A stretch of DNA of 64,000 nucleotides. Source: a virus. Where the stretch lies: IMG/VR virus record IMGVR_UViG_3300023180_000017. One strand, 5' to 3'. Below the pieces are notes generated by a model. It was not told the origin of the DNA, searched no databases, and saw only the letters and a program-made list of their open reading frames with translations. Position numbers and translations under genes: made by a program. Of the stretch, positions 28,959 through 56,608 are shown in pieces. Each line of letters starts with the position of its first letter. The stretch's first letter is position 1.

Positions 28959-28987
28959 TTGACAGGCACTTCTGTTTGTCTTATAAT
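28959..28987 (+). promoter_or_regulatory. sigma70-type promoter with upstream TTTTGGTAC box
   Basis: TTGACA-N17-TATAAT. Confidence 0.85.
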
Positions 28988-29020
28988 TATATGTATGAAT
29001 AAACAAAAAGGAGTCCTTTC

Positions 29021-30127
29021 ATGGCAAAAAGAAAACGTAGTACCTATGTGCTTACAGAACCAGATTGGAGTAAATACCAATCTATAACAGATGAACAGCA
29101 ACGAGAAAAAGCTTTTCAAGAACTAGGCTATTTTGTACATTATGAAATAGCAGACAAAACTCTCATTAAGTCTTTTAAGGAATGGATGCGTAAAAAGTCT
29201 GGCTGGGACAAGCAAGACATTACAAACATTTTAAAATTGACTGACTCCACATTTTCACACGTAGGTAAGTATGCCTTTATAGAAAGTAAAGTAGGTTACA
29301 TGCCTACTTCTTGTGTTGAGTTTATTGAGAAAAAGAAAGAACCTTGGGCGAGTAAAGGTGCAGAAAAAATTGAAGCATCTGAGGAAAAGCCTAAAGTTGT
29401 TAGAATACGAGAAAACTTACCTAACGCATTAGAGTACATTGAGAAATGTGTTGATGATTTTATTGAGACAGGTAAGGTCCCAGTCAATTGGAATGTTGTA
29501 TCTACATGTGGACTGAACAGAGCTGAGACACAAGAATTGTTTGATATACTAGGCGGCTGGAAAGGCGAGTTGGAAGAACTACAAACTGTTAGACAGATGA
29601 CAAATAGATCAGACTGGGACGAACAGTTAGTAGAAGGCTACTCGCACATTAGCAAGCCCAATACAAAGAAACTGATACAGATGTATACAGACGTTGAAAC
29701 GTCTGTCATGCAGTCTCAGCAGGCTAAGAAAATTACACGCATTAGGAAAAAGCGTCCTACAGATAAGAACAAAGTTGTTAAACGTCTTAGGTTTCTAAAG
29801 GAGTTTAAAGAACTAGATATTGTAAGTATCAATCCTGTGGACATTATAGGCTCCTCAGAAGTATGGTACTATGATGTTAAACGTAAACGCTTAGGTGTAT
29901 ATGCCTCTGACTTTGCAGGTGGTTTAGGAGTTAAGGGTACAGCTATTGAAAACTATGGCACGACATCCTATGAGAAAACAGTTAGGAAACCCGAGGAGGT
30001 TATTCCTAAATTTATGGCATGTAGGATTAATGGACTACATAAGTTTATGGAGTCTGTACGTGGTAAGAAAATGACAGTTAGAACAAGGGTACAGCCTAAC
30101 TCTGTATTGTTAAAGGTAAAGCAATGA
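29021..30127 (+). CDS. Conserved hypothetical T4-like phage protein
   Basis: QLVEGYS, SINPVDIIG, VKGT and KTVRKP motifs; AGGAG SD. Confidence 0.7.
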   Translation: MAKRKRSTYVLTEPDWSKYQSITDEQQREKAFQELGYFVHYEIADKTLIKSFKEWMRKKSGWDKQDITNILKLTDSTFSHVGKYAFIESKVGYMPTSCVEFIEKKKEPWASKGAEKIEASEEKPKVVRIRENLPNALEYIEKCVDDFIETGKVPVNWNVVSTCGLNRAETQELFDILGGWKGELEELQTVRQMTNRSDWDEQLVEGYSHISKPNTKKLIQMYTDVETSVMQSQQAKKITRIRKKRPTDKNKVVKRLRFLKEFKELDIVSINPVDIIGSSEVWYYDVKRKRLGVYASDFAGGLGVKGTAIENYGTTSYEKTVRKPEEVIPKFMACRINGLHKFMESVRGKKMTVRTRVQPNSVLLKVKQ

Positions 30128-31023
30128 TAGTTGTAGATTTTAATCAGACTGCCATTGCTAACTTCATGGCAGAAATAGGGGGGCGTAAAGATGTGTCTGT
30201 AGACGTAGACTTGCCTTTGTTGCGACATATGATTATTAATACAATTCGCTCGTATAATGTAAAGTTTAGCGAGGAGTATGGCAATCTTGTACTGGCTATG
30301 GATAATCGTAGATACTGGAGACGTGATTACTTTCCTTATTATAAGGCACATCGTAAAAAGGGTAGGGAGGAAAGTCCTCTAGATTGGAACTCTATATTTG
30401 AGGCACTAAATCAAATTAGAAATGAACTAGATGAGTTCTTCCCCTATCCCTGTATTGATGTAGAAGGTGCAGAAGCAGATGATGTTATTGGCACGCTTGC
30501 TGAGTATAGTCAAACATCTGGAAAAGGCACAGGTGGATTGTTTGATGATCCAGAGCCTGAACCCTTTTTAATTATTAGTGGAGATCACGACTTTAATCAA
30601 CTGCAGAAGTATTCTAATGTTAAACAGTATGCTCCTGCATTTAAGAAATGGGTTAAGATTAAAGAGCCTGCTTCTCAAGTGTTAATGGAACATATCATTA
30701 CAGGAGACAAAGGCGACGGCATTCCTAATATGCTATCTGAAGATGATACTTTTGTAGAAGGTAAACGTCAACGTCCTATTAAAAGGGCCTTGCTTGCAGA
30801 ATGGAAAAAGCAAAAGCCCGAGGAGTTTGTTATAAATTCGGAGATGGCTTCTGGATTTACAAGGAATCAGTTGTTAGTGGATTTATCCAAAACACCGGAT
30901 GAGATTAAGAAAGCTATTATAAATAGTTATGAGGCACAACAGGGCGGAGACAGAAGCCAGTTGTTAAATTATTTTATTAAAAACAAAATGCGTAATATGA
31001 TGGAAGTCATTACAGATTTTTAG
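30124..31023 (+). CDS. rnh: T4-type RNase H (5'-3' exonuclease)
   Basis: YWR..FPYYKA.R, EADD, SGDHDF.QL and GDKGDGIPN motifs. Confidence 0.92.
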   Translation: MIVVDFNQTAIANFMAEIGGRKDVSVDVDLPLLRHMIINTIRSYNVKFSEEYGNLVLAMDNRRYWRRDYFPYYKAHRKKGREESPLDWNSIFEALNQIRNELDEFFPYPCIDVEGAEADDVIGTLAEYSQTSGKGTGGLFDDPEPEPFLIISGDHDFNQLQKYSNVKQYAPAFKKWVKIKEPASQVLMEHIITGDKGDGIPNMLSEDDTFVEGKRQRPIKRALLAEWKKQKPEEFVINSEMASGFTRNQLLVDLSKTPDEIKKAIINSYEAQQGGDRSQLLNYFIKNKMRNMMEVITDF

Positions 31024-31032
31024 AGGTAAATT

Positions 31033-31524
31033 ATGAGAAAATTTAGACAGTTAGATGAAGCCCTAGATTGGGTAGTAGAGGCTAAAACAGGTGAAGGCAT
31101 TGCCGAAAGACTGAAGGAATGGGCAGCTAGTAATCAGTTAGCTGTTACAGTTGTTAGACTAGGAGTAGGTGCAGAAAAACTTGAATGGAATCTACCAGAA
31201 GGTATGCCATCTACTACCAAGTTGGAAGAAGATATTCCCGGTGGCATGGGTGAAACTACTATCAATCTAGAATGGAGACGTATTAAACAATTCTTTGATC
31301 CTCAAAGTAACATGAACAAACTACCCGATTGGAAGAGGGAAATTAATTGGGTTCAAATACTTGAAGGGTTGCATCACAAGGAAGCCAAACTATTGACAGC
31401 TATCAAGGATGGCAAACTTCTAAGCGAATATCCAGATTTAGAGAAATCTTTTGAAATTTTGGGTATTACAGGGTATAACACTCCTGTAAAAAAGAAAACT
31501 AGAAGCAAGAAGAAGGCAGCTTAA
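31033..31524 (+). CDS. Conserved T4-like protein downstream of rnh
   Basis: LPEG.P and KRE....QILEGLH..EA motifs. Confidence 0.7.
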   Translation: MRKFRQLDEALDWVVEAKTGEGIAERLKEWAASNQLAVTVVRLGVGAEKLEWNLPEGMPSTTKLEEDIPGGMGETTINLEWRRIKQFFDPQSNMNKLPDWKREINWVQILEGLHHKEAKLLTAIKDGKLLSEYPDLEKSFEILGITGYNTPVKKKTRSKKKAA

Positions 31525-32060
31525 AATAACTCATCAGTATCAGGACGATAAGGATCATAATACATACCTAACTGCCAACCTTCTGGAACAGGTTCAGACT
31601 TAGGTATTGTAGTCCTAACTCCGCCAGGGCCACAAACCCATTTACGCCTTTCTCTTGTAATCCAGGCTTCATGCATCTTTACACGAGTTGAGACACTATG
31701 CCTCCTGCCAAACATAGGATTATTCTCTCCACGTCTTGTTCCTTTCATTTTTTTAGATATGTTCTTTTTGTGAGTCTCACCCAAACCCTTTTTGGCTGGG
31801 TGTTTATCACCTAACTTGGCTTCACGTATTCTCTGTCTGCCTTCTTCTGTGTGCTTACGAGTACGCTTTCTAGCAGTATCATATACAACAGGCAGTCCTG
31901 TTTTCTCAGCTATATCTCTACAGAGTTCTATTGATGAAACACGTCTTAATAATTCACGTGGTTTAGGTACGTCCTGTACATGTAGGTTGTCTACAATGTA
32001 TAGTTCGTTCTTGTGTTGGAATATAAAAAATAAGGTAGCGTTATTCATTCTCACCAGCAT
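31521..32060 (-). CDS. NUMOD3 DNA-binding repeat protein
   Basis: HTEEGRQRIRE, GENNPMFGRRHS and PEGWQLG motifs; no catalytic nuclease motif seen. Confidence 0.7.
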   Translation of the reverse strand: MLVRMNNATLFFIFQHKNELYIVDNLHVQDVPKPRELLRRVSSIELCRDIAEKTGLPVVYDTARKRTRKHTEEGRQRIREAKLGDKHPAKKGLGETHKKNISKKMKGTRRGENNPMFGRRHSVSTRVKMHEAWITRERRKWVCGPGGVRTTIPKSEPVPEGWQLGMYYDPYRPDTDELF

Positions 32061-33363
32061 ACTCAGCTATAAGCTCACCTAAGCCATTTAGCTTTTCAAG
32101 TATGTTTCTAAAATATAATTCACCGTTAGTTTTTGTTTCAATCTTTACACGAATGCGAAGTATTCCTGTATTAATACCTCTAGCAAAAAGATCCATTTGT
32201 GGTAGTCCTGAAGATCCCACTCTAATTTCTGCTTTGAAAGGACCTAACTTATCAAATGCCTTTTCAAGGTTGTCAAAGGTATAGACTTTAGCCATACCAG
32301 ATTTTAATTGTACGAGTTGAACGTGTTTTTCATCTCTTGTGGCATGCCATTGTATGGCACTTGCGAATGCTTTTAGTGTATCCTTGTCGTCTTCACTAAA
32401 TTTTTTAGCTACTTCTGTAGCAACATGTTTGTAAATAAATTGAACAGCCTTTTTAGTTTCTGATTTCTTTAGGAAGGCTTCATATGTTGATCTTTGTCTA
32501 GATACATCCATTCCAAATAGTTGTTTCCAAAGTTTTATTTGTACATCAAAACCAGATCCACTTATTTGTCCAAACTGTTTTACATCTCCTGCTTTTAATG
32601 ATACATTGATGTCAATGTCTTTTAGTTCCTTATCGTGATTAGATAGTTTCACTCTAACATCAACCTTCGTGCCTGTTTGATCAGACAAGCCATCGGACAA
32701 TACTTGTACTCTATTATAGATATTGTTTTCATAAACTAAGTTTGCCCACTTCTTAACATAAGTTGCGTTGGCATATTTTACAGAGGCTTCTACCAACTTT
32801 TTTGTTTCTGGTAATGCTCTAATATTTCTATCAGCAAGTGCTTCCATATTGTTTTTTGCTAGTCCTAATACAAACTCTATATCGTCTAAAATAGCAGGGT
32901 TGGCGTTTGCTGATTTGTAATTGATTTGTTGCTTCGGATTCCTATTAAGTTTCATTAATACATTCTCTACATCTGAAGCACTGATGTCCCTATTTTTATT
33001 AATGAAACGAGCTGTAATAGCTGCACCAAATATACCTTCAGCAATATCACCTTGATTATAACCTTTGCCTTCCTTGTAATCCATAGTCTTTTCTAGGTGT
33101 CCTAAAGGTCTTTGTTTACCTGAGGCATCTTCCATCATTAACTTGTTATGTCCTTTTATTGCACTAACCAATGCTGACTCTTGAACTCTGCCTACAATGT
33201 ATTCTTTGCCGTCTATAATAAACTTCTTAGGAACATACTTACCACCTCCATGCTTAGATAAAACAGTATGCCCTGTTCCTTTTGTTGTGATAGATACAAA
33301 GGTAATGACACGAGCATCGCCATATTTTACGTCTAATAGTTTTGATTTAGAGAGGTCTGCCAT
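32041..33363 (-). CDS. Putative PD-(D/E)xK restriction-endonuclease-fold protein
   Basis: GDIAEG helix, KVDV and NVSLK motifs. Confidence 0.5.
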   Translation of the reverse strand: MADLSKSKLLDVKYGDARVITFVSITTKGTGHTVLSKHGGGKYVPKKFIIDGKEYIVGRVQESALVSAIKGHNKLMMEDASGKQRPLGHLEKTMDYKEGKGYNQGDIAEGIFGAAITARFINKNRDISASDVENVLMKLNRNPKQQINYKSANANPAILDDIEFVLGLAKNNMEALADRNIRALPETKKLVEASVKYANATYVKKWANLVYENNIYNRVQVLSDGLSDQTGTKVDVRVKLSNHDKELKDIDINVSLKAGDVKQFGQISGSGFDVQIKLWKQLFGMDVSRQRSTYEAFLKKSETKKAVQFIYKHVATEVAKKFSEDDKDTLKAFASAIQWHATRDEKHVQLVQLKSGMAKVYTFDNLEKAFDKLGPFKAEIRVGSSGLPQMDLFARGINTGILRIRVKIETKTNGELYFRNILEKLNGLGELIAEYAGENE

Positions 33364-37087: not shown

Positions 37088-37656
37088 TATGTGGAGATTC
37101 TTTTGCAGCAGATTGGACCGTAAAATATCCCGATCAAAAGGGTTGGCCCAATATGCTAGCAGAACACCACGATGTAATTAATATAGCACAAGCGGGCTGT
37201 AGTCAATATAAGGTACTGAAACAAATAACGAGTATCTTTCCAGAGGACTTTGATAATATCATTATCTCACATACCAGCCCTTATAGGTTGCCTATAGTAA
37301 ATCACCCACTTCACTTATATGATCCTCTCCACAAGGATAGCGATCTAATCTATTTGGATATAAAGGACAGGCCTGGATTGGAAGGGCTTGCTTCCTATTT
37401 TGAAAACCATATGGATTTAGAGTTTTGTACCTATATGCACACTACCATATGTCAAGAAATACATAATCTGACAGAATGGGACGAGGTGTTGCACATGACA
37501 GGAATCTTTTGGCATGATTTATATGAGTTCCCAGGAATGATCCATTTCGAAGATATTATGAAAGATCATCCTGGATTGATGAACCATATGAATGATGAAG
37601 GCAATAGAAAAGTGCTGGAAAAGGTACTAGCGTGGATAGACGATGTATCCAAGTAG
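37072..37656 (+). CDS. SGNH/GDSL-like protein
   Basis: ICGDSF, NIAQAGCS and C-terminal NH...GN motifs. Confidence 0.6.
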   Translation: MSKILICGDSFAADWTVKYPDQKGWPNMLAEHHDVINIAQAGCSQYKVLKQITSIFPEDFDNIIISHTSPYRLPIVNHPLHLYDPLHKDSDLIYLDIKDRPGLEGLASYFENHMDLEFCTYMHTTICQEIHNLTEWDEVLHMTGIFWHDLYEFPGMIHFEDIMKDHPGLMNHMNDEGNRKVLEKVLAWIDDVSK

Positions 37657-38311
37657 GGGCGATAAAGACTTTGAATTATATTGTGTAAATGATATCAAAG
37701 CATGGCAACCTAGCTTAAGGGATCATGGCATAGACTATACGACAAACTCATTTAGAATGAGAATGTCTTCAGACCCTAAGTATAATCCAGATAGTGTCGT
37801 ATTCTTAGGAGGATCAGATACTTGGGGTGTTGGCATGGCGTATGAAGATACCTATGTCCATTTAATATCCCAGCAACTAGGATTAGAAGCGGTTAATCTA
37901 GGTGTTCCTGCAGGTGGTATGGACTCAGCATTTAGAATATATCACCAATGGCAACCTTTAATCAAGGCTAGATACACGGTTTTTAATGTAACACCTGGCG
38001 TAAGACGAGAAGTCATATGTACCAGCAAAATAGATTATAGTAGAGTAACAGAGTGCAAGATATTAGGCAGATGGAACGTTGATTCGATGCCTGATTTATT
38101 ACAGCAACACCTTAATGATTATGAATATACGATGCAGAGATATAAGAACATCGCAGGTATAACAGCACTTGCCAAAGAGCATAACTCCCATCTTATTGTA
38201 ATTGAGAACACAGAAGAGTGGCCAACTACAGCAGCAGATGGTATGCACTATGGTAAGGAATATCATACCTGGGTAACAGAACAAGCAATCAAAGGAGTAG
38301 CAAAGCAATGA
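37643..38311 (+). CDS. SGNH/GDSL-like protein
   Basis: LGGSDTWG, NLGVPAGG and DGMHYG motifs. Confidence 0.6.
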   Translation: MYPSRGDKDFELYCVNDIKAWQPSLRDHGIDYTTNSFRMRMSSDPKYNPDSVVFLGGSDTWGVGMAYEDTYVHLISQQLGLEAVNLGVPAGGMDSAFRIYHQWQPLIKARYTVFNVTPGVRREVICTSKIDYSRVTECKILGRWNVDSMPDLLQQHLNDYEYTMQRYKNIAGITALAKEHNSHLIVIENTEEWPTTAADGMHYGKEYHTWVTEQAIKGVAKQ

Positions 38312-40658: not shown

Positions 40659-41378
40659 ATGGCATTCCCTATGAGAGTTTATGAGCATTATTCATCCGAC
40701 AATCCCACAACATGGGCAAAACATTTACAGTTTGAACACCCTAGAGATAGAGCGATCAAACATGGTTGGTACGATACTAATACGAAGAATATGCGTAATA
40801 GTATAGAGTATAAACTTACAGAAGAAGATGAATATCGTACCGATGAATTTAACGAAGTAAGAGACTTTATGTTTATAGGTTGTTCTTGTACATTTGGTGT
40901 GGGTATACAATATAATGATAGATTAGATCAGATAGTACAGCGTAACATGGGATTTACTTCGTATAATGTGGCTAAGCCAGGTATTGGTTGGGAAGGGTAT
41001 TATCGTATCCTTTCCGAGAAATTGCAATATGCCAATACCATTGTTGTAATACCACCTTACAGTTATGCTCGTAGGGAAATACAGTTAGAAAATAAAACGA
41101 TACTTATCACACCACAACAGCCTGAAGGGCATTCAAATGCCAAACTTAGTTATAAGCCATATGAACTATTATGTGAAACAGAAACTAAAGTAATGGTACA
41201 ACGAATGCTTGACGCGATTAAGTGGTTGTGTTATCGTAACAACAAGAATGTAATAGTTACACCCCGATTATTTGTACAGAGAAACAATGATATGGGTGCG
41301 AGAGACTTACAGCATCCTGGTAAAAATGTACACTTGGATGCTTCTATACTTTTGGAACGGAAAATGAGGAAACTATAA
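40659..41378 (+). CDS. SGNH/GDSL-like protein
   Basis: IGCSCTFG, NVAKPG and RDLQHPG motifs. Confidence 0.6.
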   Translation: MAFPMRVYEHYSSDNPTTWAKHLQFEHPRDRAIKHGWYDTNTKNMRNSIEYKLTEEDEYRTDEFNEVRDFMFIGCSCTFGVGIQYNDRLDQIVQRNMGFTSYNVAKPGIGWEGYYRILSEKLQYANTIVVIPPYSYARREIQLENKTILITPQQPEGHSNAKLSYKPYELLCETETKVMVQRMLDAIKWLCYRNNKNVIVTPRLFVQRNNDMGARDLQHPGKNVHLDASILLERKMRKL

Positions 41379-41929
41379 TGTCCAAAAAACTAAAAGATCG
41401 TTTTGATCTAGAAACGGATATCATGCAATGTTGGAATATAGTAGATGACATTGATTTGCTATATGAGAACGTTTGTGATAATTCTAAATTTGATATGCCT
41501 CCCGAAACTAATGATCGCATTGCAAACGCTTTGTTAGGACTTAAAGAATTGTATGAAATGCGCTTTGAACGACTTAATGATACCTTTGCCCAGACCTATC
41601 GTTTAGATAAATACCGTGAGGTGGAGGACGAAGACAGTGACAGTGATTGGGAAGAAAGTGATTGGCAATGGGATAATGATGATGATGAACCAACTACTGT
41701 TCTGGTGGATGACCATATTGATTTAGTTACTGTTCCTTTGCAATATGAACTCCCCATGGATTGGGCCTCTGATGCTAATTATAACTTTAATGTAACCGAC
41801 TCTGCTGATGCTGATTTAACGATGGGTGGAACGGTTACTATTACTACGGACGAAAAGGTGGGTGGACTAAAAGATCTTTTGAGTGGAACGGTTACTATTA
41901 CTACGGACGAGCCAAGCGCTTCGCGATAA
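41378..41929 (+). CDS. Acidic hypothetical protein
   Basis: DRFDLE..IM.CW; acidic tail containing an internal duplication. Confidence 0.65.
   Translation: MSKKLKDRFDLETDIMQCWNIVDDIDLLYENVCDNSKFDMPPETNDRIANALLGLKELYEMRFERLNDTFAQTYRLDKYREVEDEDSDSDWEESDWQWDNDDDEPTTVLVDDHIDLVTVPLQYELPMDWASDANYNFNVTDSADADLTMGGTVTITTDEKVGGLKDLLSGTVTITTDEPSASR
41826..41910 (+). repeat. 28-bp perfect direct repeat (two copies, 57-bp period)
   Basis: GTGGAACGGTTACTATTACTACGGACGA at 41826-41853 and 41883-41910. Confidence 0.9.
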
Positions 41930-41945
41930 CTGCGTTGAATTTATT

Positions 41946-42680
41946 ATGGAAACAATTAAGAGAAAAGGTATTAAGTGGCATGTACTGCCGCGTAGAGATT
42001 TAATATTTGGCTTTATTGACAAAACAGGTGACTTTGAACCGAAAGTAAAGAAGTCTGCTAAAAAGTATATTACGCCTAAGTCAACGGTGTTGGACATTGG
42101 ATCTAATTTTGGATCCTTTGTTATTCCTTTGGCCGTTCAGTTTCCCGATACCCAGTTTATAGCATTTGAGCCACAGCTTGAAGTATTTAAAGAGCTAATT
42201 GCAAACGCCGAACTTAATGAGCTCAACAACTTCAAAGCATACAATCAAGTATTATCCAATAAACCTAACATCATATTACACGCTCCCAAGGTAAAATACA
42301 GTGGTGATGATGCTGAATACAATTCAGGTGCCATGTGTTTTGATACGGAACTTAGGCAAAGAATACTGGAAAAGCAAGGGTACACAAAAAGAACACCTAT
42401 GGAAATGGGTGCTCGTGATACATTAATATACAAGTCAAAGAGATTGGATCAATATATTGATGAAATAGAGAATGTCTCCGTAATTAAACTTGATGTAGAA
42501 GGTATGGAAAAGAAAGTATTAGAAGGTGCCATACAAATAATAAAGCGAGATAAACCTGTTATACTGTTTGAAATGTGGGATTGGTATTGGACAGGCTTGA
42601 CAGAATGGTTAGATATGTTAAACTATGAAGTAAAACGTATTAATGGAGACGATTATATAGCATGTTCAAAAGAAAAATAG
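41946..42680 (+). CDS. FkbM-family methyltransferase
   Basis: VLDIGSNFG, AFEP and IKLDVEGME motifs. Confidence 0.9.
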   Translation: METIKRKGIKWHVLPRRDLIFGFIDKTGDFEPKVKKSAKKYITPKSTVLDIGSNFGSFVIPLAVQFPDTQFIAFEPQLEVFKELIANAELNELNNFKAYNQVLSNKPNIILHAPKVKYSGDDAEYNSGAMCFDTELRQRILEKQGYTKRTPMEMGARDTLIYKSKRLDQYIDEIENVSVIKLDVEGMEKKVLEGAIQIIKRDKPVILFEMWDWYWTGLTEWLDMLNYEVKRINGDDYIACSKEK

Positions 42681-44026
42681 CCTTTGTTATAACAGCACAA
42701 CATTGTATTCCTCACGGTGGCATAGGACAGTTCTGTAAATCTTTTGTCGATATGGCAAAAGAACTAGAATGGGCTGTTCATATTATATTGGATAAGGCTC
42801 CTGCTAAAAGTAGCTTAGTAGATTACTTACAAGAACAAGATAACGTCAACCTTTTTTACAGTCAAGGAACACAGCAATACACCAACCACAACAAGACATT
42901 CGTGTTTGAAGACACAATGAACTTTGAACGTATGTTAAACGTTAGGGCCAATATGTTAGATGCCTTAGAACGTAACATATATGATATGGTGTTAATTAAC
43001 AGCCCTGATGCTGTATCCACAATTTACAACTTAGGCTTACAGCGCTTTGTACCTGTAGTCTTTTACACTCATTCAGAAAACTTTATCTTTTTAGAAAAAG
43101 GTGCTAATAAGGTGTTTAGTGAGGCATGCGTATATTATATGCAGAATCTCCTACAATTACCCGGTTTAACAATCGGAACACAAACTTCACTAAACACCAA
43201 GCACATTCAGGAAAACTTTAACCTCAAATCCGTAGCTTTGCCTATGCGGGTTCCAGAACTACAGCTTTTGTTCAATGTCGACGTTGAAAAGGAAGGGGTG
43301 TTGTTCACAGGACGTTGGGAACCACGCAAGAACCCCAAAGTATTTTGTGACGCCGTAATAGAAATGGACGTCCCAGCTAAGGTACTTACAAATGCTAAAG
43401 GTAAGGAAAAGTTTGAGGCATACTTTAAAGAGCATAACTTTACCAAGTATGAAATACGGGCAAGCATAATTGGGCAGGAGAAGGTAGACTTTATACGAAG
43501 TGCTAAAATAGCATTTCACCCAGCACAGTTGGAGTCATTTGGCTTTAGTGCTTTTGAGAGTTTACACTCTTGCCCAACCTTTTGCTTGGAAAAGTATGAT
43601 TGGTGGAACAACTTTGCAGGACTTGTAGTTCCACTAGGCAACGACTATGTTGAGGAATTAAAAAGTGCATATAACACAGATGATCTAATGTATGAGGGGC
43701 GACTCAGAACCCTATATAGCATAGATCAATATACTATAAAATCCTGGAAAGAATTTGTAGAAACAGATTCCTATGCAGGACAAAGTAATGTGGAAAATGC
43801 TCTTACAAAAGCAGTAGATGAAAGTGAACAGAGTTTTGGATTGTTACACTATTATTTGAACATATTAAAAAGACAAAGTATTGCAATAGATGATGTTCAT
43901 ACTGTTTATAAGAAACAAAGTCAAATAACTTTAACACAATTATTGGAAGATACATATATAACTAAACAAGGAAGTGAATTCAACCCTATGGTTGAAGAAA
44001 CTACATCATTGGAGGATTTATTTTGA
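42662..44026 (+). CDS. GT-B (GT4-like) glycosyltransferase
   Basis: HGGIG, FTGRWEPRKNP and ESFGFSAFE motifs; C-terminal SLEDLF. Confidence 0.8.
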   Translation: MFKRKIAFVITAQHCIPHGGIGQFCKSFVDMAKELEWAVHIILDKAPAKSSLVDYLQEQDNVNLFYSQGTQQYTNHNKTFVFEDTMNFERMLNVRANMLDALERNIYDMVLINSPDAVSTIYNLGLQRFVPVVFYTHSENFIFLEKGANKVFSEACVYYMQNLLQLPGLTIGTQTSLNTKHIQENFNLKSVALPMRVPELQLLFNVDVEKEGVLFTGRWEPRKNPKVFCDAVIEMDVPAKVLTNAKGKEKFEAYFKEHNFTKYEIRASIIGQEKVDFIRSAKIAFHPAQLESFGFSAFESLHSCPTFCLEKYDWWNNFAGLVVPLGNDYVEELKSAYNTDDLMYEGRLRTLYSIDQYTIKSWKEFVETDSYAGQSNVENALTKAVDESEQSFGLLHYYLNILKRQSIAIDDVHTVYKKQSQITLTQLLEDTYITKQGSEFNPMVEETTSLEDLF

Positions 44027-44283
44027 GAACAGAAGATCAATTAACACATTTTCACATATCATTGATTAAGTCGTTTTTAAGAATACTCGCAGGTTTTTTA
44101 CTACTAGCAGTACCAGATGTTATGGTAAAAATGTTTGCAGGACTTTTTATTGCGTCAGAACTTTTTGGTATTTTAGAAGAGCTTGTAGGGGAGGCTAAAA
44201 GTGTACCCGGAAATAATAATGTCCGTAACCCTGGGAAACATCGAAACAATTACTATCGAAGAAAACAAAAGCAGAGATCTTAA
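44023..44283 (+). CDS. Small membrane protein
   Basis: HF.ISLIKS.LRI...E..GILEELV. Confidence 0.65.
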   Translation: MRTEDQLTHFHISLIKSFLRILAGFLLLAVPDVMVKMFAGLFIASELFGILEELVGEAKSVPGNNNVRNPGKHRNNYYRRKQKQRS

Positions 44284-44331: not shown

Positions 44332-44871
44332 ATGGCAACTCTTATACACGAACACCAATTGGGATCTTGCTGTCTCATATCAGGCTCTGCTTGGTTGACT
44401 ATACCTAAAAATGCTTCATCACTATTAAGAGAACTGTCAAAGCATGACGGTCTTTTATACAATGAAACAATTTTCAATTACCCACTTACTGTCGTTATAA
44501 GAGACCCCGTGGATAGGTGGGTGTCCGGCATGTCCGAATATCTATCAAGAAAAACGGGAGGGTACTTTGTAATTGCAAATCAGCCAACTTACGATGATCT
44601 ATACAACAAGATAGAGTATGATGCTCACACAGCACCGCAACATAGGTTTTTTGAAAACTTTACAGTAAATCAATTTTATTTGTTTGAAGACATTCCCAGC
44701 CTTTTCCCTAAATCGGAAAGGATAAACAGTATGGATTCTACGTGGATGAGACGTCAAGTGAAGGATTGGGTTCTTTCAAAGATGGATGATAGGCTTGAAA
44801 AACAAATAATCAAGTATTACGAAAAAGATTATCAGTTATATCAGGAACTTAAAAAACAAAGAAATGCTTGA
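44332..44871 (+). CDS. Sulfotransferase family 2-like protein
   Basis: IPKNASS, IRDPVDRWVSG, HTAPQ and YYEKDY motifs. Confidence 0.75.
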   Translation: MATLIHEHQLGSCCLISGSAWLTIPKNASSLLRELSKHDGLLYNETIFNYPLTVVIRDPVDRWVSGMSEYLSRKTGGYFVIANQPTYDDLYNKIEYDAHTAPQHRFFENFTVNQFYLFEDIPSLFPKSERINSMDSTWMRRQVKDWVLSKMDDRLEKQIIKYYEKDYQLYQELKKQRNA

Positions 44872-44916: not shown

Positions 44917-45567
44917 ATGACTATGAAAGTTAGCGCATCTAAGCAAAAGGTACCACAGTATATACTAGACAACGCTAGTAACTACAAAAGAACCAAGTCT
45001 GTTAGAAGGGTTAATAAGCACGGGTTGCCTGTTTTTGATACTTCTAAGGCAGCTAGTGAACACAAGGATAGACCTAAAGTGTGTCAAACCAGAGGCTGTC
45101 ATAATAAGCCATCTGTACAGGGCGGAGAAAGGCAAGGTTATTATTGGTTGATGTGGTGTTCTGAATGTTGTAAGAAAGACAGAGCAGACAGGCAAGGGTT
45201 TAGTAATACAAAAGAATACAAAAATAAATTAGCAGAAGATGCCGGTTTCTTATCTCACGGCGACAGATCTAAAGCAAGTCATAAATACCTGAAGTATAGA
45301 AAAACATTTTGTGAAAACATTGACGGTAGGTTAGGGTTTAAGTGTACGACTACAATTATCAATCCTCAATCTCATCCTAAAATATTTGAACAAAATACTA
45401 ATGTGGATCCTGCATGGAACGGATTGTTACATGTGGATCATATTGATGGAGATCCCTCCAACAACAATCAGGAAAATTTACAAACACTTTGTGTTTGTTG
45501 TCATACAATTAAAACAGCATTATACGAAGACTATAGATCGCCAGGGAGAAAGACTTTGAAGTGTTAA
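44917..45567 (+). CDS. HNH endonuclease
   Basis: LHVDHIDGDPSNN..ENLQTLCVCCH..KT; N-terminal Cys cluster. Confidence 0.85.
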   Translation: MTMKVSASKQKVPQYILDNASNYKRTKSVRRVNKHGLPVFDTSKAASEHKDRPKVCQTRGCHNKPSVQGGERQGYYWLMWCSECCKKDRADRQGFSNTKEYKNKLAEDAGFLSHGDRSKASHKYLKYRKTFCENIDGRLGFKCTTTIINPQSHPKIFEQNTNVDPAWNGLLHVDHIDGDPSNNNQENLQTLCVCCHTIKTALYEDYRSPGRKTLKC

Positions 45568-46062: not shown

Positions 46063-48453
46063 TTACTCGTATTGTAAATTAACCAGATCCTCATGAAGTT
46101 TTTGACCACCATACATTAGCCTTAGCGATCTACTTCTGGAATCCCTTATGTTCTTTCCTTCATATATCTTTTTAACACGATACCAATTAAGTTGATCTCT
46201 TAATTGTGCCTCGGTGTACATATCAAAACCTTTGACATATGACATCAATAATAATGTTATCCGCTGGTCTCCTTCAAAACCCCCGGACTCTTCAATCTCT
46301 TCTGCAAAACTTTGTAGAGCATCTTCCAAGTCTTGTTGTGATATCTCGGATAATACTGACTCAGCCTTTGCCATTGTTTCCTGCTCTTCTGAGCTGGGTG
46401 GTTTTACATCAAACGCTTGAAAGTTTGGCTGTGTTCCACTTAAAAATTCACCTATGTTTTGCCCTGTTGCAATAGCATCATTAAAGTTTTGTTCAAATTC
46501 CATTTCCATTGAGCTAGATGAAAATGATTCTATACTCTCCTGCGGTGTTTCACCACTATCTTGTACCGACGACTGTTGATTTTGTGCTAGATCTTGCTCT
46601 AAAGCGTCTATTTTTGCTTCTAATTCTTGCGATAACTCCTCACTTTGAGCACTTTCTGGAGCATTTTGGATTATGGTGACTGTTTGTACTATGTCAAGAA
46701 CTAATTCTAGCGTATTTCTTGATATTTTTTCAGATTTAGCTGCAGGCTCTTCTTCTTTTTCAAACTCTTCAACAAATTCTTCCTCTTCCTCAACAATTTC
46801 CTCAACAATTTCTTCTTCGATGAGTAATTCTTCTTCTAAATTACTTACTTCCTCTTCCATAGGAGTAATTTCTTCAAAAATTTCCTCCTCAACCAACGTT
46901 TCCTCATCTATTGGCTCTTCAAAAACCTCTTCTACGAGTGTTTCCTCCAAAAATTGCTCTTCTTCAGGCAAAGATTCATTTATAATTGCCTCTTCTATAA
47001 AAACTTCACCGCTATCTGACATTGTTTCATCAACAAACCCTATAGATTCATCGGTTACACCCATATCTGTTGTTGTGGCATCAAATTCTTCAACACCCAT
47101 GTCATAAAAATCACTAATTTCATCACCAAACACAAAATCTTGTCCTGTTGCATTTTGTATTGCATTTGCTTCTTCATAACCAGGACATGTTTGATCATAC
47201 AGAGCATCTAATTCACATTGTTGATCAAAATAAGCTTCCGTATAACCTGGACATTGTTCATCATACAATGCATCTAAGCTACATTGTTGATCAAAATATG
47301 CCTCTTCATAACCAGGACAGCCACTGTCATATAATGGATCTAAACTGCACTGCTGTGAATAATATGCTTCCTCATAACCTGGACAGCCACTGTCATATAA
47401 TGGATCATATGAGCATTGTTGGTCGTAGTATGCCTCAGCGTATCCTGGACACCCTGAATCGTATAACGGATCATATGAGCATTGTTGATCGTAGTATGCC
47501 TCTTCATATCCTGGACATCCACTATCATATAAGGGGTCGTTATTACATTGTTGGTTATAATATGCCTCTTCATACCCTGAACAGCCTTGATCGTATAAAG
47601 GATCCTCTGAACATTGTTGGTTATAATATGCCTCTTCATACCCTGAACAGCCTTGATCATATAATGGATTTTGTTCACATTGTTGATTAAAATATGCTTC
47701 GTCATAACCTTCACAAGAAGGATCATTTAAAGGATTAGAGCAGTCAGGACCAGCATTACTTTCATAACCACCATCTTGCCCATACCATGCGTAATATGTG
47801 TTACCTTCTATTTCATACGTTTCAGATGCAAAAGAAGCCACATCATCCATTGACAAACTACCTTGTCCATAAAACAATTCGGTTACTTCATCGTAGACGT
47901 TTCCATTTAAACTTGTCGTGTCACCTGTATATCCAATCCATACACTATGTTGAGTGACATTAACATCTGCATAATGAAAATCAAAAGAACCATCGGGCCA
48001 TAGTTGAACACCAAATGTGTTTAGATTGTTAGTGCCGTATTCTGTTATGTTCTTCCAAAGAAATGCGGTGCCGTCTGTCCCTGTCTCATAAAAGTAACCT
48101 GAATCTAGTATGCTAGTGTTATGTCTCAAGTCTGTCCACAGAGGAGCAAGCATGTAACTGAAACTGTTTCCAGCATAGTTATAACCAGAAGGATTGAACC
48201 CGCTACAGCATCCGTTGTTGTTAGTGCTAGGATTACCGAATTGTGATACAGGGTCGTATAGTAAAATAAAACCATTACTAGACATCCAGGCATCAGTAAA
48301 GATACCCCCGTAGTATGGAAAAGTGTGCCCTAAATTGATATGAACGGTGCCATCATCAACACCGTTCATTACCTGTGTTTCTTCTGCTAAACTATAAGAG
48401 GAGCAAAAGTAAAGCAGCAGCCCCGCCAGCAGCGTACCAGCCTGTTTTATCAT
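46063..48453 (-). CDS. Exported protein: nidogen(NIDO)-like domain, Cys-rich repeats and acidic stalk
   Basis: Signal peptide; DDG...LGHTFPYYG...SNG...APLWTDL; nine 22-aa repeats; Glu-rich region. Confidence 0.7.
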   Translation of the reverse strand: MIKQAGTLLAGLLLYFCSSYSLAEETQVMNGVDDGTVHINLGHTFPYYGGIFTDAWMSSNGFILLYDPVSQFGNPSTNNNGCCSGFNPSGYNYAGNSFSYMLAPLWTDLRHNTSILDSGYFYETGTDGTAFLWKNITEYGTNNLNTFGVQLWPDGSFDFHYADVNVTQHSVWIGYTGDTTSLNGNVYDEVTELFYGQGSLSMDDVASFASETYEIEGNTYYAWYGQDGGYESNAGPDCSNPLNDPSCEGYDEAYFNQQCEQNPLYDQGCSGYEEAYYNQQCSEDPLYDQGCSGYEEAYYNQQCNNDPLYDSGCPGYEEAYYDQQCSYDPLYDSGCPGYAEAYYDQQCSYDPLYDSGCPGYEEAYYSQQCSLDPLYDSGCPGYEEAYFDQQCSLDALYDEQCPGYTEAYFDQQCELDALYDQTCPGYEEANAIQNATGQDFVFGDEISDFYDMGVEEFDATTTDMGVTDESIGFVDETMSDSGEVFIEEAIINESLPEEEQFLEETLVEEVFEEPIDEETLVEEEIFEEITPMEEEVSNLEEELLIEEEIVEEIVEEEEEFVEEFEKEEEPAAKSEKISRNTLELVLDIVQTVTIIQNAPESAQSEELSQELEAKIDALEQDLAQNQQSSVQDSGETPQESIESFSSSSMEMEFEQNFNDAIATGQNIGEFLSGTQPNFQAFDVKPPSSEEQETMAKAESVLSEISQQDLEDALQSFAEEIEESGGFEGDQRITLLLMSYVKGFDMYTEAQLRDQLNWYRVKKIYEGKNIRDSRSRSLRLMYGGQKLHEDLVNLQYE
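47160..47750 (-). repeat. 66-bp intragenic tandem repeat (about nine units)
   Basis: Consensus QQCSxDPLYDSGCPGYEEAYYx. Confidence 0.9.
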
Positions 48454-49381
48454 CTTCTTCCTCGTCTTTCATTTTAACTTCGTCTAATGCGTTATCAGGA
48501 ATTAGCTGAGGATTTTCTACCCACGCTTCTAATGCCTCATCGCCGATTTTACCTTCGAAAGGACAAGGAGTGCCTGCCATCATCATGGCTTTCCAAACTC
48601 TTTCGTCCTGACACATTGTAGATACAGCAGCGACACGCATTCCCATATCATATAAAGTTTTGGACAATTTAATTCTTTCGCAGTTCATATCTCTTACAGA
48701 CTTTCCTGCAGACAAACCTAGAATTTGAGTTTGTATTGCTCCAGAAACACCTGTTGTACATAGGTCTTGAGAATAAGAAGATCCTATACTAGGAGCGATT
48801 GCAGATGGAGGTGGAGATTTAATTTCCTGCTCAATCTTTTGTGTTGATGTGCTCTCGTTACGATTTATATTCTCGTTTCTATTGTTGTTGGTGTTGTTTG
48901 TTGTAACATTACTATCAGACTCGCTATAGTTCGTATTTGTGTTATTAGACGTACTATTGGAAGTGCTATTATTAATGTTAGTGTTGGTGTTGTTGCTTAC
49001 TGTATTGTTATTATTGGTATTCACATTGTTACTATTAATATTGGTATTATTGTTGTTATTATTCGTATTGGTATTATTCGATGTGCTATTAATAGTGGTA
49101 TTATTTGTGTTCGTATTAGTATTTGTGTTATTAGACGTACTGTTAATAGTGGTATTATTTGTGTTCGTATTGGTATTCGTGTTAGTTGACGTACTATTTA
49201 CAGTCGTGTTATTATTATTCGTGTTGACGTTGGTGTTGGTGTTCGTTGATGTGCTGGTTGTGTTAGTAGTATTGGTGGTATTAACATTGGTGGTAGTCTC
49301 ACTACTACTAGAATCTGCATCTTGTGCAAAAACAGGGAAGGCCAACAAAACAGCGGCGAACATAATTATAAAGTTACGCAT
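48392..49381 (-). CDS. Exported Asn/Thr-rich protein with Cys-containing domain and C-terminal hydrophobic anchor
   Basis: Signal peptide ending VFA-Q; long Asn/Thr/Ser low-complexity tract; PPPSAIAP..DLC..NCER..MCQD..GTPCP; GGAG SD. Confidence 0.8.
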   Translation of the reverse strand: MRNFIIMFAAVLLAFPVFAQDADSSSSETTTNVNTTNTTNTTSTSTNTNTNVNTNNNNTTVNSTSTNTNTNTNTNNTTINSTSNNTNTNTNTNNTTINSTSNNTNTNNNNNNTNINSNNVNTNNNNTVSNNTNTNINNSTSNSTSNNTNTNYSESDSNVTTNNTNNNRNENINRNESTSTQKIEQEIKSPPPSAIAPSIGSSYSQDLCTTGVSGAIQTQILGLSAGKSVRDMNCERIKLSKTLYDMGMRVAAVSTMCQDERVWKAMMMAGTPCPFEGKIGDEALEAWVENPQLIPDNALDEVKMKDEEEDDKTGWYAAGGAAALLLLLL

Positions 49382-52531: not shown

Positions 52532-53279
52532 ACTTATTATAGGAATAGGTGATTCTTTTATACAGGGTGCAGAAGCCGGGGGTGAAGAAGCATCTTTTCT
52601 AGCTCAATATGCTAACATTTGTAATGCAGATTATATTAACCTAGGTACAGAGGGAGTTGGTAATCTTGGTTCTGTTTTGAATTTATTCATGTACGACTTA
52701 GGATTGAGTGATTATCAAGAAAAGTATTTAATTTGGATGCCAACAGCTTTATCCAGGGTAGACTATTTAAATCCTAAATGGGTTCCTAAACCGAAAAAAA
52801 CTTTTAATGAATTTTTAACCATTTTTCCTAATTCAGAACCCCCCAATGTTCACGGAGAAGAACATCAAGAACTATGTAAAATCTGGGCTAAGATAAGTTC
52901 TCAAAGATCTGAGAATACAAACTTTTTACTGTCTTATAAATTACTTAAACAATTTTGTCATGCGAACGGGATATTGAATTATAAGATTTTTCCCTCTTTT
53001 ACAAACGAGTATAAACAGGAAAAATTTCTTTATTTTGATAATCACCTATATACATCAATTCAATGGACAGATATAATTACTGTTGGTGGTCATTCTAATA
53101 TGTTTGACTGGTGTGTGAAAGAGCTTTTGTTACTTGAAGAGGAAATTACCACCTTTGATCTTATTAACAAAAAAGTTCAACATCAAAATTTAGAAAAATA
53201 TTTTCACGAAAGAGGTCATCCCACTCGTTTAGGACATACACTATTTGCAAGAGCTCTTGCTCAGGAACATCAATTATGA
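52521..53279 (+). CDS. SGNH/GDSL-like protein
   Basis: IGDSFIQG, NLG..G.GN and GHPT..GH motifs. Confidence 0.6.
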   Translation: MSDRLIIGIGDSFIQGAEAGGEEASFLAQYANICNADYINLGTEGVGNLGSVLNLFMYDLGLSDYQEKYLIWMPTALSRVDYLNPKWVPKPKKTFNEFLTIFPNSEPPNVHGEEHQELCKIWAKISSQRSENTNFLLSYKLLKQFCHANGILNYKIFPSFTNEYKQEKFLYFDNHLYTSIQWTDIITVGGHSNMFDWCVKELLLLEEEITTFDLINKKVQHQNLEKYFHERGHPTRLGHTLFARALAQEHQL

Positions 53280-54280
53280 AAATTTTAATTACAGGCATCG
53301 CGGGTTTTTTAGGAAGTCATTTAGGCGAAAGACTTGTAAAGAATACAAATCACACAATTATTGGAAACGATAACTTGTTAGGCGGGTATGTTGATAATAT
53401 ACCTGAAGGAGTAAGTCGTTATAAGGTTGATTGTTGTGATTATGAAGGAATGTATAGAATTCTTGAGGGAGTTGATGTTGTAATACATACAGCCGCCACT
53501 GCACACGAAGGACTGTCTGTTTTTTCACCTTCATTTATTACTAAAAACATTTATGATGCCAGTGTTACAACAATGAGTGCTGCCATAGCAAGGGGAGTTA
53601 AGAAATTTATTTTTTGTAGTTCAATGGCAAGATATGGCGATCAAGAAGCACCCTTTACAGAGGACATGACGCCTCAGCCTGTTGATCCTTATGCTATTGC
53701 TAAAGTAGCTGCCGAAGATACCCTAAGAATATTATCTAAAGTTCATGGAATGGATTATGTTATAGCTGTCCCGCATAATATTGTAGGACCCAGACAAAGA
53801 TATGACGATCCTTTTAGAAATGTTATGAGCATAATGATTAATAGAAACCTAATGGGCAAGCCTGCTATTATTTACGGAGACGGGGAACAAACAAGATGCT
53901 TTTCCTACGTAGATGATTGTGTTGACTGTTTAGAACAAATGATTTATAGAAAAGATATTAATGGTGAGGTAATTAATATTGGGCCTGACTCAGGCGAAGT
54001 AACAATTAATACATTAGCAGAAATGATTTCCTCAATTACTAGGTGTAATGAGGCTCCAATATATATGGAAGGCAGACCACAAGAAGTTAAACACGCAACT
54101 TGTTCTGCAGAAAAGGCAAAAAAACTTTTAAACTACACCCCCAATTCTGATTTACTTATGATGATTAAATCTACTGTAGAATATATAAAATTACGAGGAC
54201 CAAAACCCTTTAATTATAATTTGCCTGTAGAGATTATAAATGAAAAAACTCCCAAAACTTGGAAAGATGGATTAATGTAA
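53276..54280 (+). CDS. NAD-dependent nucleotide-sugar epimerase/dehydratase
   Basis: TGIAGFLG, SS...YG, YAIAK (YxxxK) and GDGEQTR motifs. Confidence 0.92.
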   Translation: MKILITGIAGFLGSHLGERLVKNTNHTIIGNDNLLGGYVDNIPEGVSRYKVDCCDYEGMYRILEGVDVVIHTAATAHEGLSVFSPSFITKNIYDASVTTMSAAIARGVKKFIFCSSMARYGDQEAPFTEDMTPQPVDPYAIAKVAAEDTLRILSKVHGMDYVIAVPHNIVGPRQRYDDPFRNVMSIMINRNLMGKPAIIYGDGEQTRCFSYVDDCVDCLEQMIYRKDINGEVINIGPDSGEVTINTLAEMISSITRCNEAPIYMEGRPQEVKHATCSAEKAKKLLNYTPNSDLLMMIKSTVEYIKLRGPKPFNYNLPVEIINEKTPKTWKDGLM

Positions 54281-55644: not shown

Positions 55645-56608
55645 AGAAGAGATTCCCGCAATTAACGAAAGTCTTAAAAAAACAAGACGAGCTGTTATTT
55701 GTTTTGGTTGCTCCTTTGCAGAGGGACAAGGCGCCGTGCCCTTTGAAATATATCAAAACTATGCACCACCTCAACAAGACTTTACTATGGTTTCCTGGAA
55801 CGATATGCCTTATGAGCACAAAAAGGAAATCGCAGATAAGTATGGGGCAGAACTTTGTCCATATGGTCCTTCTAAAGACAATGTCTTTATTAACATGGCT
55901 CCAATAGAAAGACAAAACAACTACAGTGGAATTTTATGTAGAGAATTTTTGGATGGATGGACTCACATCAATTTTGGTATGAGGGGTAATGGTAATAGAG
56001 CAAGTATTAATAATCTTTGGCACTATCCTGATCTTAGATTAGATCTTATAGATGAGGTTATTGTCATATACACTCCTGCAGGAATGGATCGATTTGATTT
56101 TGCTAGAAAAGACTTGCCAGATACAGGACACTTTACCCATACTACAATGTGGCCCCATAAGGATGCTCAACCTGAAGAAGATCCTAGAAAACCACTGTGG
56201 GATAGTTATGCGGAGTATCTTTACAGTCCAAGAATGGTTATCCAAGAACAAATATATAATATACATTACCTTATGTCTTGGATGAAGAATATTAAAAAAC
56301 ATCATTTTATAATGACTCCTGCATATGATAGAGCATACGATAGAGGTGTTTGGTTATCAAAATGGTATATTGAACAAGAAATGGTTGATATGTTCCCTTG
56401 GGAAGCACACTTTAGACCTGGGGGACATCACACATTTATAGAATATGTTGAAGCAACTGAGGGCTTACCTTTATTAGGTTATTGGGGACTAAACGGTAAA
56501 GGTTCGCCTAAAGGATATATAACACCCTGCTCGCATCCTGGCGTAGAAGGACACCGCGTATTCGCAAAAGCAATTTATGAGAAATTAAGAAATGAACAAA
56601 GAATATAA
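55637..56608 (+). CDS. SGNH/GDSL-like protein
   Basis: FGCSFAEG, NFG..G.GN and SHPG..GH motifs. Confidence 0.6.
   Translation: MFKEEIPAINESLKKTRRAVICFGCSFAEGQGAVPFEIYQNYAPPQQDFTMVSWNDMPYEHKKEIADKYGAELCPYGPSKDNVFINMAPIERQNNYSGILCREFLDGWTHINFGMRGNGNRASINNLWHYPDLRLDLIDEVIVIYTPAGMDRFDFARKDLPDTGHFTHTTMWPHKDAQPEEDPRKPLWDSYAEYLYSPRMVIQEQIYNIHYLMSWMKNIKKHHFIMTPAYDRAYDRGVWLSKWYIEQEMVDMFPWEAHFRPGGHHTFIEYVEATEGLPLLGYWGLNGKGSPKGYITPCSHPGVEGHRVFAKAIYEKLRNEQRI

Follow-up and report, generated by a model that had tools for sequence, protein, structure and literature searches.

A phage glycosyltransferase with a predicted polymerase-type clamp-docking tail: a candidate enzyme for adding sugars to DNA behind the replication fork

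In phages T4 and RB69, the C-terminal peptide of the DNA polymerase gp43 is the element that docks on the sliding clamp gp45. Clamp-linked glycosylation of DNA also has a precedent because the T4 alpha-glucosyltransferase co-purifies with gp45, and the T4 beta-glucosyltransferase did not bind this clamp, as described in the accessible part of that report (PMC13216743). Here we analyze a gene for a 454-residue glycosyltransferase (GT), which is found at positions 42662..44026 (+ strand, including the stop codon) of a 64,000-nucleotide stretch of viral DNA, IMG/VR record IMGVR_UViG_3300023180_000017. We refer to this whole stretch as the window and to its virus as the window phage. The GT appears to be of the GT4 type, and it ends in a peptide resembling the tail of gp43. 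We consider it fairly probable that the enzyme is tethered to the clamp and acts on phage DNA behind the replication fork. Its acceptor in the window phage is left unassigned, whereas in most relatives the acceptor is probably a 7-deazaguanine derivative.

Several other described systems resemble parts of this locus. QTMAN, the vertebrate tRNA queuosine mannosyltransferase, is a member of family GT4. According to the accessible descriptions, it attaches a sugar to a 7-deazaguanine derivative that is already a part of a nucleic acid, but it acts on animal tRNA and its acceptor hydroxyls are on the cyclopentene ring of queuosine. In phages, 7-deazaguanines are inserted into DNA after replication by DpdA enzymes, of which the DpdA2 of the VH7D system has been studied, as has phage phi-Grn1, and complete modification of the genome is reported for the DpdA3 subfamily (PMC10516641, accessible part). 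The same part of that paper describes the phage 7-deazaguanine systems (DpdA, FolE, QueD, QueE and QueC) without a glycosyltransferase or a link to the clamp. In the accessible parts of two further reports, phage DNA glycosyltransferases are either GT-A enzymes or GT-B enzymes similar to the T4 beta-glucosyltransferase, and they are associated with TET-like dioxygenases or thymidylate-synthase homologues (bioRxiv 10.1101/2023.12.21.572611; PMC13326640). Within the accessible literature, our search found no publication that connects 7-deazaguanine or DpdA to the sliding clamp in the sense proposed here and no GT4 DNA glycosyltransferase with a polymerase-type tail.

Read directly from the DNA, the C-terminus of the GT is ...NPMVEETTSLEDLF, followed by a TGA stop codon. 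The original prediction had likened this end to the tails of T4 gp43, gp55 and gp33, and these tails, taken directly from the T4 record, do have the same form: gp43 ends in ...EEKASLDFLFG, gp55 in ...SPSLDFLYEAND (its last residues being SLDFLYEAND) and gp33 in ...TNTLDFLL. As in the T4 proteins, an acidic stretch precedes the peptide, which forms the very C-terminus and follows the pattern S/T-L-acidic-...-hydrophobic-F. The gp43 of phage Moby, which ends in SSLEDLFGW, contains the SLEDLF of the window GT. The difference from T4 is that the peptide, which is alike in sequence, is carried here by a sugar transferase (and, in relatives, by a DpdA-like transglycosylase) and not by a polymerase or a transcription factor. 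Neither the alpha- nor the beta-glucosyltransferase of T4 has a C-terminal end of the polymerase type.

The tail is a conserved, modular trait of the GT family, but not a universal one. There are 1046 GT homologues at E ≤ 0.001, and an exhaustive profile search of cluster representatives gave 551 at the same threshold and 173 at E ≤ 1e-30; the best 150 representatives were examined for tails. A simple rule, [LFMI]F within the last 7 residues, is obeyed by 115 of the 120 best homologues and by 67 of the 93 full-length (420-520 aa) representatives of 50%-identity clusters, as opposed to 73 of 1127 open reading frames (ORFs) in a background that consists of four related genomes and the window and includes the true cases. 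Hence, the tail is present far more often than expected by chance. A broader hydrophobic-aromatic rule covers 77 of the 93 full-length representatives. In the near clade of six members, L450, E451, L453 and F454 are invariant. In a set of 19 shorter forms (340-419 aa), 13 are tailless and several stop straight after the GT core, and in two short forms a tail-like peptide is placed directly on the core (P0292, ...ALF; P0291, ...SLW, which fails the simple rule). The tail is also absent from the more distant GT homologue of Xanthomonas phage X1 and from P0381, in which a ParB_N domain (42 bits versus a cut-off of 26.3) is fused N-terminally to the GT core and would offer a different means of targeting DNA. 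The conservation of the tail among homologues, on which the original prediction hinged, is thus borne out, as is its claim that none of the other glycosyltransferases in the window ends in this way. In a crude call of 98 window ORFs, four obey the rule, namely the GT, an 86-aa ORF, a 54-aa hydrophobic ORF and a NUMOD3 endonuclease, and the latter three are not glycosyltransferases. The NUMOD3 homing-endonuclease-like protein (31521-32060, - strand) ends in ...RPDTDELF.

The fold of the enzyme was examined with an AlphaFold2 model built on an alignment of 42 homologues, with which the N-terminus of the GT lines up. The model is of high confidence (pLDDT 91.9, pTM 0.91), and the earlier assignment as a GT4-like enzyme with a GT-B fold holds. 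The top Foldseek matches are the retaining GT4 GT-B enzymes PimA (2gej, E 4.3e-11), MshA (3c4q) and BshA (3mbo), with E-values of 4e-11 to 1e-10. VIA-align matches residues 2-373 to TarM (Z 27.4, root-mean-square deviation 3.6, 342 residues aligned), BshA (Z 27.3) and MshA (Z 26.1), and it also returns a tetrahydrobiopterin glucosyltransferase at Z 26.4. The catalytic GT-B core, as defined by the model, the structural matches and the invariant residues, therefore comprises residues 1-373 (42662..43780, + strand). Residues H14, G19, G20, G22, G217, R218, E220, K223, E291 and E299 are invariant in the 42-sequence alignment, and the latter two, located in the C-terminal domain of the fold, have the E-x7-E spacing. 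Such a pair of glutamates is a typical motif of GT4. The window GT shares with BshA, MshA, PimA and TarM the two-Rossmann GT-B architecture (Z 25-27 over about 325-345 residues), the E-x7-E spacing and the N-terminal glycine-rich loop. However, it is only 8-17% identical to these enzymes, carries an additional 67-residue domain, a linker and a docking peptide, and is located in a phage replication and DNA-modification region and not in an envelope locus. In a Pfam scan of the window proteins at E ≤ 0.01, Glycos_transf_1 (PF00534) reached 20.4 bits on the GT, which is below the cut-off of 26.4; a PF00534 match is precomputed for several of its homologues. According to the model, the GT would be a retaining GT4-type enzyme dependent on nucleoside diphosphate sugars.

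The enzyme does have the extra C-terminal region with a linker that was noted earlier. The structural matches extend only to residue 373, and none of those returned by VIA-align covers residues 374-440 (43781..43981, + strand), which are folded in the model into a small alpha/beta domain with a pLDDT of 85-96. Its DSSP elements (H380-387, E391-393, H394-401, H409-417, E422-426 and E431-435) are arranged in a helix-strand-helix-helix-strand-strand order, which we read in the model as winged-helix-like, and R404 and D411 are invariant among the 42 sequences. An Atlas search with residues 370-454 gave nothing usable. The domain is followed by an acidic linker, NPMVEETT (residues 441-448, 43982..44005, + strand), recognized by its charge and falling pLDDT, and by SLEDLF (residues 449-454, 44006..44023, + strand), the clamp-docking peptide of polymerase type predicted from its sequence likeness and conservation. 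The mean pLDDT falls to 72 for residues 441-450 and to 51 for residues 451-454. The drop in model confidence over the last 14 residues is what one would expect of a short docking motif on a flexible linker. The end of the protein is acidic, with a net charge of -5 over residues 437-454, and in 120 homologues the last 20 residues have a median charge of -3. Both the catalytic residues and the tail are intact in the window phage.

A comparison of the GT tails with the gp43 tails of the same genomes gives an indication of what the peptide might bind. Four complete or nearly complete related records (BUCT-ZZ01, G001, G002 and G003) were fetched whole and subjected to a crude ORF call and a C-terminal scan. 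In each of them, the scan picked the family-B polymerase, the GT homologue and a neighboring 415-428-aa protein, the DpdA-like protein described below. The identity of the polymerase was supported by Pfam in three of the four records and by homology to T4 gp43 in all four. Further records comprised four with a full-length gp43 and a GT, two with a longer polymerase (about 900 aa) and a GT, and one with a C-terminal piece of the polymerase and a GT. The tails of gp43, GT and DpdA-like protein are, in this order, TLDDFFS, SLEDFFND and SLDSFFD in BUCT-ZZ01; SLDDFF, NLDAFFG and DLEDFF in G002; and TLEGLFS, TLESLFK and SLEDLFA in G003. Records L009, L010, L036 and L055 are of the G003 type, with TLEGLF(A/G), (S/T)LESLF(A/V) and (S/T)LE(D/E)LF(A/G). 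The gp43 and GT tails are FDDLFSF(G/S) and (S/G)LFEGL in L050 and L044, and SMFEF and GLFDF in L026. The likeness is weakest in G001 (VLLDFG, SFDDIF and SLELEF). Thus, gp43 and the GT have a tail of the same flavor in 10 of the 11 related T4-like records, with G001 being doubtful, and these represent only about five independent lineages because several of the records are closely related. The original prediction had proposed a comparison with gp43, gp55 and gp33 of the same phage; the likeness is found in the gp43 of relatives and in the T4 tails, and the gp43 of the window phage is encoded outside the window. Taken together, these sequence comparisons support the notion that the tail behaves as a polymerase-type clamp-docking peptide.

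The same genomes offered one further candidate for a clamp client. The baseplate-hub protein (PF12322, phrog_150; BUCT-ZZ01 7844-8554, G003 74428-75120, G002 83823-84524 and G001 170303-171019) ends in G(L/T)xxFF(A/V) in three of the four genomes, and in G001 it has GLQSFF six residues from the end. We rejected this candidate since its FF ending does not follow the flavor of gp43.

A gp45 clamp (PF09116) is encoded in all five searched records that carry a GT homologue. The interaction was modeled with a pair of proteins from G003 because the clamp and the polymerase of the window phage are located outside the window. Co-folding of three copies of the G003 gp45 with residues 411-455 of G003's own GT gave a score of 0.54, and the best of three controls scored 0.00. 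In a benchmark, 116 of 157 solved complexes passed, as did 2 of 215 mismatched pairs, but passes with a score of at most 0.60 accounted for only 18 of the 157 solved complexes and for both passing mismatches. At least 28% of contacts were shared between the runs, the pLDDT of the partner was at least 38, and custom alignments were used. A similar complex, that of the RB69 clamp with its polymerase peptide, has already been solved, and the pass may for this reason reflect memorization by the predictor. Hence, the co-folding lends weak support to clamp binding. The co-folding with gp45 suggested in the original prediction was thus made with the pair of a relative.

The gene neighborhood of the relatives points to the chemistry in which the GT may take part. 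Loci with a GT homologue were found by alignment-based scans of viral and metagenome contigs, and a single-protein query gave none in either. QueE is present in 74 of 80 viral loci, FolE in 68, PTPS/QueD in 61, a 120-150-aa protein (phrog_17812) and a second GT4-like gene in 58 each, and a DpdA-like protein of 415-431 aa in 50. Among metagenome loci, QueE is found in 61 of 80 and in all 23 of those with at least 3 kb on both sides. In most relatives, the GT is thus located within a FolE-QueD-QueE (7-carboxy-7-deazaguanine) cluster, and this association is kept across several gene orders. QueC was found in none of the five related records, so that 7-deazaguanine synthesis in the relatives, with QueE present, would stop at the carboxy stage. 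These genomes therefore share the FolE-QueD-QueE cluster and a gene with a tRNA-guanine transglycosylase (TGT) fold with the described phage 7-deazaguanine systems, and they differ from them in the absence of QueC; the window lacks the whole cluster.

The DpdA-like protein (L003 8544-9815, + strand; BUCT-ZZ01 67260-68510; Moby 31462-32673; X1 72861-74174) combines the TGT fold with the same type of tail. It has no Pfam match, and the Pfam TGT profile gave no hit in any of the five related records; since this profile misses the protein, it is recognized only by its fold. All 50 structure matches listed for its model (pLDDT 88.4) are TGT enzymes, with E-values from 4e-9 and template-modeling scores, normalized by target, of 0.53-0.61, and the motifs HADSGGLQ and SYDSTTH are invariant. 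Homologues are found in 71 phage records, including Vibrio phages VH7D and phi-Grn1 and Stenotrophomonas phage Moby, and in two cultured phages, Moby and X1, they bear the annotation queuine tRNA-ribosyltransferase. Their tails again resemble gp43 of the same phage: ...NSLDDLFG next to ...SSLEDLFGW of gp43 in Moby, and ...QSLEELFG next to ...SSLESLFG of gp43 in X1. The tail of the DpdA-like protein suggests a clamp-coupled insertion of 7-deazaguanine. As the DpdA family acts on DNA and bears the same tail, it provides the strongest indirect argument that the GT acts on DNA as well. Two relatives, P0306 (865 aa) and P0314 (844 aa), consist of a GT core and a C-terminal half of about 450 aa, the DSGG and DS(S/T) motifs of which align with the DpdA-like profile, although the hhalign match of this half is weak (probability 10%, E 0.003). 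In Moby, a gene annotated as inositol-3-phosphate synthase (28981-30231; L220 3505-4755) is located inside a FolE - QueC-like - DpdA - QueE cluster.

The alternative source of an acceptor, a hydroxymethylated pyrimidine as in T4, was implied in the original prediction, which had proposed a search for a dNMP hydroxymethylase. In T4, the acceptor is hydroxymethylcytosine, which needs a ThyA-type hydroxymethylase. A hydroxymethylase of the thymidylate-synthase family (PF00303) was found in none of the five related records, three of which are 100% complete by CheckV, with BUCT-ZZ01 in addition being deposited as a complete genome, whereas the control was positive in 10 of 14 genomes. There is likewise none among the window ORFs of at least 100 aa. 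As no PF00303 gene is present in the five related records, the T4-style route is not supported, and we rejected it. TET/JBP (PF12851) was also found in none of the five records, which shows little as its control was positive nowhere. The window GT is not matched by the profiles of the T4 alpha- and beta-glucosyltransferases (PF11440 and PF09198), the above Pfam scan having returned only Glycos_transf_1. The T4 alpha-glucosyltransferase (a-gt, PF11440) is similar to the window GT in being a mildly acidic phage GT-B enzyme (pI 6.11 versus 5.35) with a T4-like replisome context and a clamp link. However, it belongs to a separate family, has no polymerase-type tail and is absent from the 50 best structural matches.

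The sequence of events that we favor is as follows. The acidic linker and SLEDLF would dock the GT on a gp45-type clamp just as the DNA polymerase of the phage is docked. Riding the clamps that are left on freshly replicated DNA, the enzyme would then move a sugar onto a modified base, and the translationally coupled FkbM methyltransferase, described below, may O-methylate this sugar. Action on DNA at or behind the fork fits four features of the tail, namely that it is conserved, that it has the form of the T4 tails, that it co-varies with gp43 and that it is present in the DpdA-like enzymes. The earlier proposal that the GT glycosylates DNA at the fork is partly supported in this way, and the T4-style chemistry that it implied is not supported. 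A more far-reaching version is that the DpdA-like protein and the GT4 enzyme both ride gp45 via polymerase-mimicking tails and jointly write a glycosylated 7-deazaguanine in T4-like phages of lakes and seas, and that the window lineage has re-partnered the GT with FkbM, and perhaps with a sulfotransferase, to make a methylated or sulfated DNA sugar. We regard this version as possible but rather doubtful.

A number of findings weigh against a clamp-tethered, DNA-acting GT. The simple tail rule is failed by 26 of the 93 diverse full-length representatives, and the motif alone is not specific because the PF12322 baseplate protein has an FF ending without tracking the polymerase. The co-variation of the gp43 and GT tails was judged by eye, and it was compared in relatives, as the clamp and the polymerase of the window phage are not within the 64 kb. 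The co-folding result is weak and was obtained with the pair of a relative. According to hmmsearch and phmmer, the window contains no DpdA-like gene, FolE, QueD or QueE, and neither FolE nor the DpdA-like gene is present in a 40-kb relative with the same FkbM-GT context; all of the deazaguanine genes are found in further members (L003, L142 and L145) of this clade of about 62% identity. Among the window ORFs of at least 100 aa, which include ThyX only, there is neither a thymidylate-synthase homologue nor a Tet/JBP domain, so that the window offers no enzyme that would make an acceptor. The closest structures that have been solved are those of enzymes acting on small molecules or polymers, namely L-malate, inositol phosphate, phosphatidylinositol, teichoic acid and tetrahydrobiopterin. 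The GT is also acidic, with a pI of 5.35, which is not decisive since the T4 alpha-glucosyltransferase (6.11) and the DpdA-like proteins (5.9-6.9) are acidic too; the pI of the T4 beta-glucosyltransferase is 9.05.

Tetrahydrobiopterin deserves attention among these substrates. Cyanobacterial tetrahydrobiopterin glucosyltransferases are among the best structural matches (9v0l at Z 26.4; 5zes at Z 25.9 and Foldseek rank 13), 9v0l is the top PDB sequence match of the fused relatives (E 4.9e-4), and 5zes comes from Synechococcus elongatus PCC 7942, which is the host of BUCT-ZZ01. With FolE and a PTPS-family gene flanking the GT in most relatives, the enzyme could glycosylate a small molecule, be it a pterin or a 7-deazapurine in free form (base or nucleotide) that the adjacent FolE and PTPS-family enzymes derive from GTP, and the tail would only bring it close to the replisome or serve otherwise. 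We consider this unlikely: the scores of the pterin enzymes, which are 11-14% identical to the GT, do not exceed those of a dozen other GT4 enzymes, QueE in 74 of 80 loci and the TGT-fold neighbor favor deazaguanine in DNA over pterins, the window has no FolE or PTPS gene, and an enzyme of metabolites has no evident need of a gp43-covarying tail or of a ParB_N fusion. A second alternative is an ordinary auxiliary GT that would modify a host envelope polysaccharide or a virion protein, with the C-terminal peptide being incidental. The window is rich in sugar genes, its FkbM-family and sulfotransferase-like neighbors are typical of glycan tailoring, and the automatic name given to many of the homologues by the Joint Genome Institute is "glycosyltransferase involved in cell wall biosynthesis". 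An incidental peptide, however, is hard to reconcile with a tail that is kept at the above frequencies over the background, tracks the polymerase and is common to the DpdA-like enzymes, whereas the other window glycosyltransferases and the distant X1 homologue lack it. To this explanation we give only a slim chance.

Finally, the tail might dock on a partner other than the phage clamp, such as the host beta clamp, the single-stranded DNA-binding protein or RNA polymerase, which would still place the GT at the replisome or at a transcription complex. The bacterial beta-clamp motif is also of the L-x-L-F type, short hydrophobic-acidic C-terminal peptides make several replisome contacts (T4 gp32 ends in ...DLDDLLNDL), and the co-folding with gp45 is only weak. 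On the other hand, the peptide matches the gp43 of the same genomes, in which this element is the clamp-docking one in T4 and RB69, gp45 is encoded in all five records, and the three co-folding controls scored 0.00. We therefore consider a different partner quite improbable.

If the GT indeed acts on DNA from the clamp, this would be a simple mechanism for fast and complete post-replicative modification. Recruitment of a DNA modifier to the clamp is known for the T4 alpha-glucosyltransferase without a defined docking peptide, whereas here the peptide of the polymerase itself is found on a large family (the 551 cluster representatives) and on its DpdA-like neighbor. A sugar-bearing DNA base would be predicted in abundant aquatic phages, and tails that copy the gp43 of the phage would provide a cheap rule for finding DNA-modifying enzymes. 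If the 7-deazaguanine reading is also true, the product would be a glycosylated 7-deazaguanine, which is not among the bases listed in the accessible part of published work. The cultured phages BUCT-ZZ01, Moby and X1 open this reading to a direct test.

The window phage is T4-like, as it encodes a T4-type RNase H, a gp61-like primase, ribonucleotide reductase, ThyX, dCMP deaminase and PhoH. The gene upstream of the GT encodes an FkbM-family S-adenosylmethionine-dependent methyltransferase (41883..42680, + strand, with the true start probably at the ATG at 41946; PF05050 at 42.8 bits, phrog_8156), and its end overlaps the GT start by 19 nucleotides. The adjacency of these two genes is kept in four related loci (L002, L139, L140 and L141), where a 183-aa acidic protein without a Pfam or PHROG match occupies the same relative place upstream of the FkbM-GT pair as in the window (41378..41929, + strand). 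Downstream, an 86-aa ORF with a hydrophobic middle and a basic end (44023..44283, + strand) overlaps the GT stop codon; it has no family match, is found in 1 of 80 metagenome loci and may not be a real gene. It is followed by a weakly sulfotransferase-like protein of 179 aa (44332..44871, + strand), for which Sulfotransfer_2 reached 24.9 bits (cut-off 22) and none of the stretches passes individually; its homologues are located upstream of the GT in L002 and L139-L141. Of the two flanking enzymes proposed to decorate the sugar, the overlapping methyltransferase is thus confirmed by its family match, and the sulfotransferase is a weak assignment. The next gene encodes an HNH endonuclease (44917..45567, + strand; HNH_3 at 24.7 bits versus a cut-off of 24.8, seven HNH PHROGs), which is likely a mobile element and has homologues downstream of the GT in L002, L139, L140, L143, L144 and L146. 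The phrog_17812 protein and the second GT of the relatives were not found in the 64-kb window. A promoter and terminator scan was uninformative, with 39 promoter-like sites versus 32.6 expected.

Two tandem QueC-like PP-loop proteins are encoded between the two ribonucleotide reductase genes (22171-22815 and 22815-23447, + strand). They have SGGxDS near the N-terminus and CxxCxxC near the C-terminus, and because of this pair the window phage may have some deazaguanine chemistry.

At some distance from the GT, a 796-aa protein (46063-48453, - strand) consists of a hydrophobic N-terminal leader, about ten tandem units similar to PLYD(S/Q)GC(P/S)GYEEAY(Y/F)(D/N)QQC and a very acidic, E-rich stretch. 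A 329-aa protein beside it (48392-49381, - strand) is made mostly of N/T/S runs, and neither of the two belongs to a Pfam family. The window is unusually rich in sugar genes for a single phage: two GT2 enzymes, two cytidylyltransferases, an N-acetylglucosamine transferase, an NAD-dependent epimerase/dehydratase and a carbamoyltransferase are encoded at 3168-3944, 5875-6312, 7077-7853, 10454-11095, 19293-20369, 53276-54280 and 59987-61438 (these seven genes are all on the + strand). Four radical-SAM proteins are also encoded, and it is possible that the sugar and radical-SAM genes supply donors or tailoring steps for a glycan. Three paralogues dispersed around the region of the GT (37643-38311, 40659-41378 and 56592-57512, + strand), one of which matches DUF6473 and the others of which are linked to it by phmmer (E 4e-6 to 3e-8), have an N-terminal motif similar to G-x-S/D-x-x-G-x-G, from which we would guess that they are glycan-tailoring esterases or acyltransferases.

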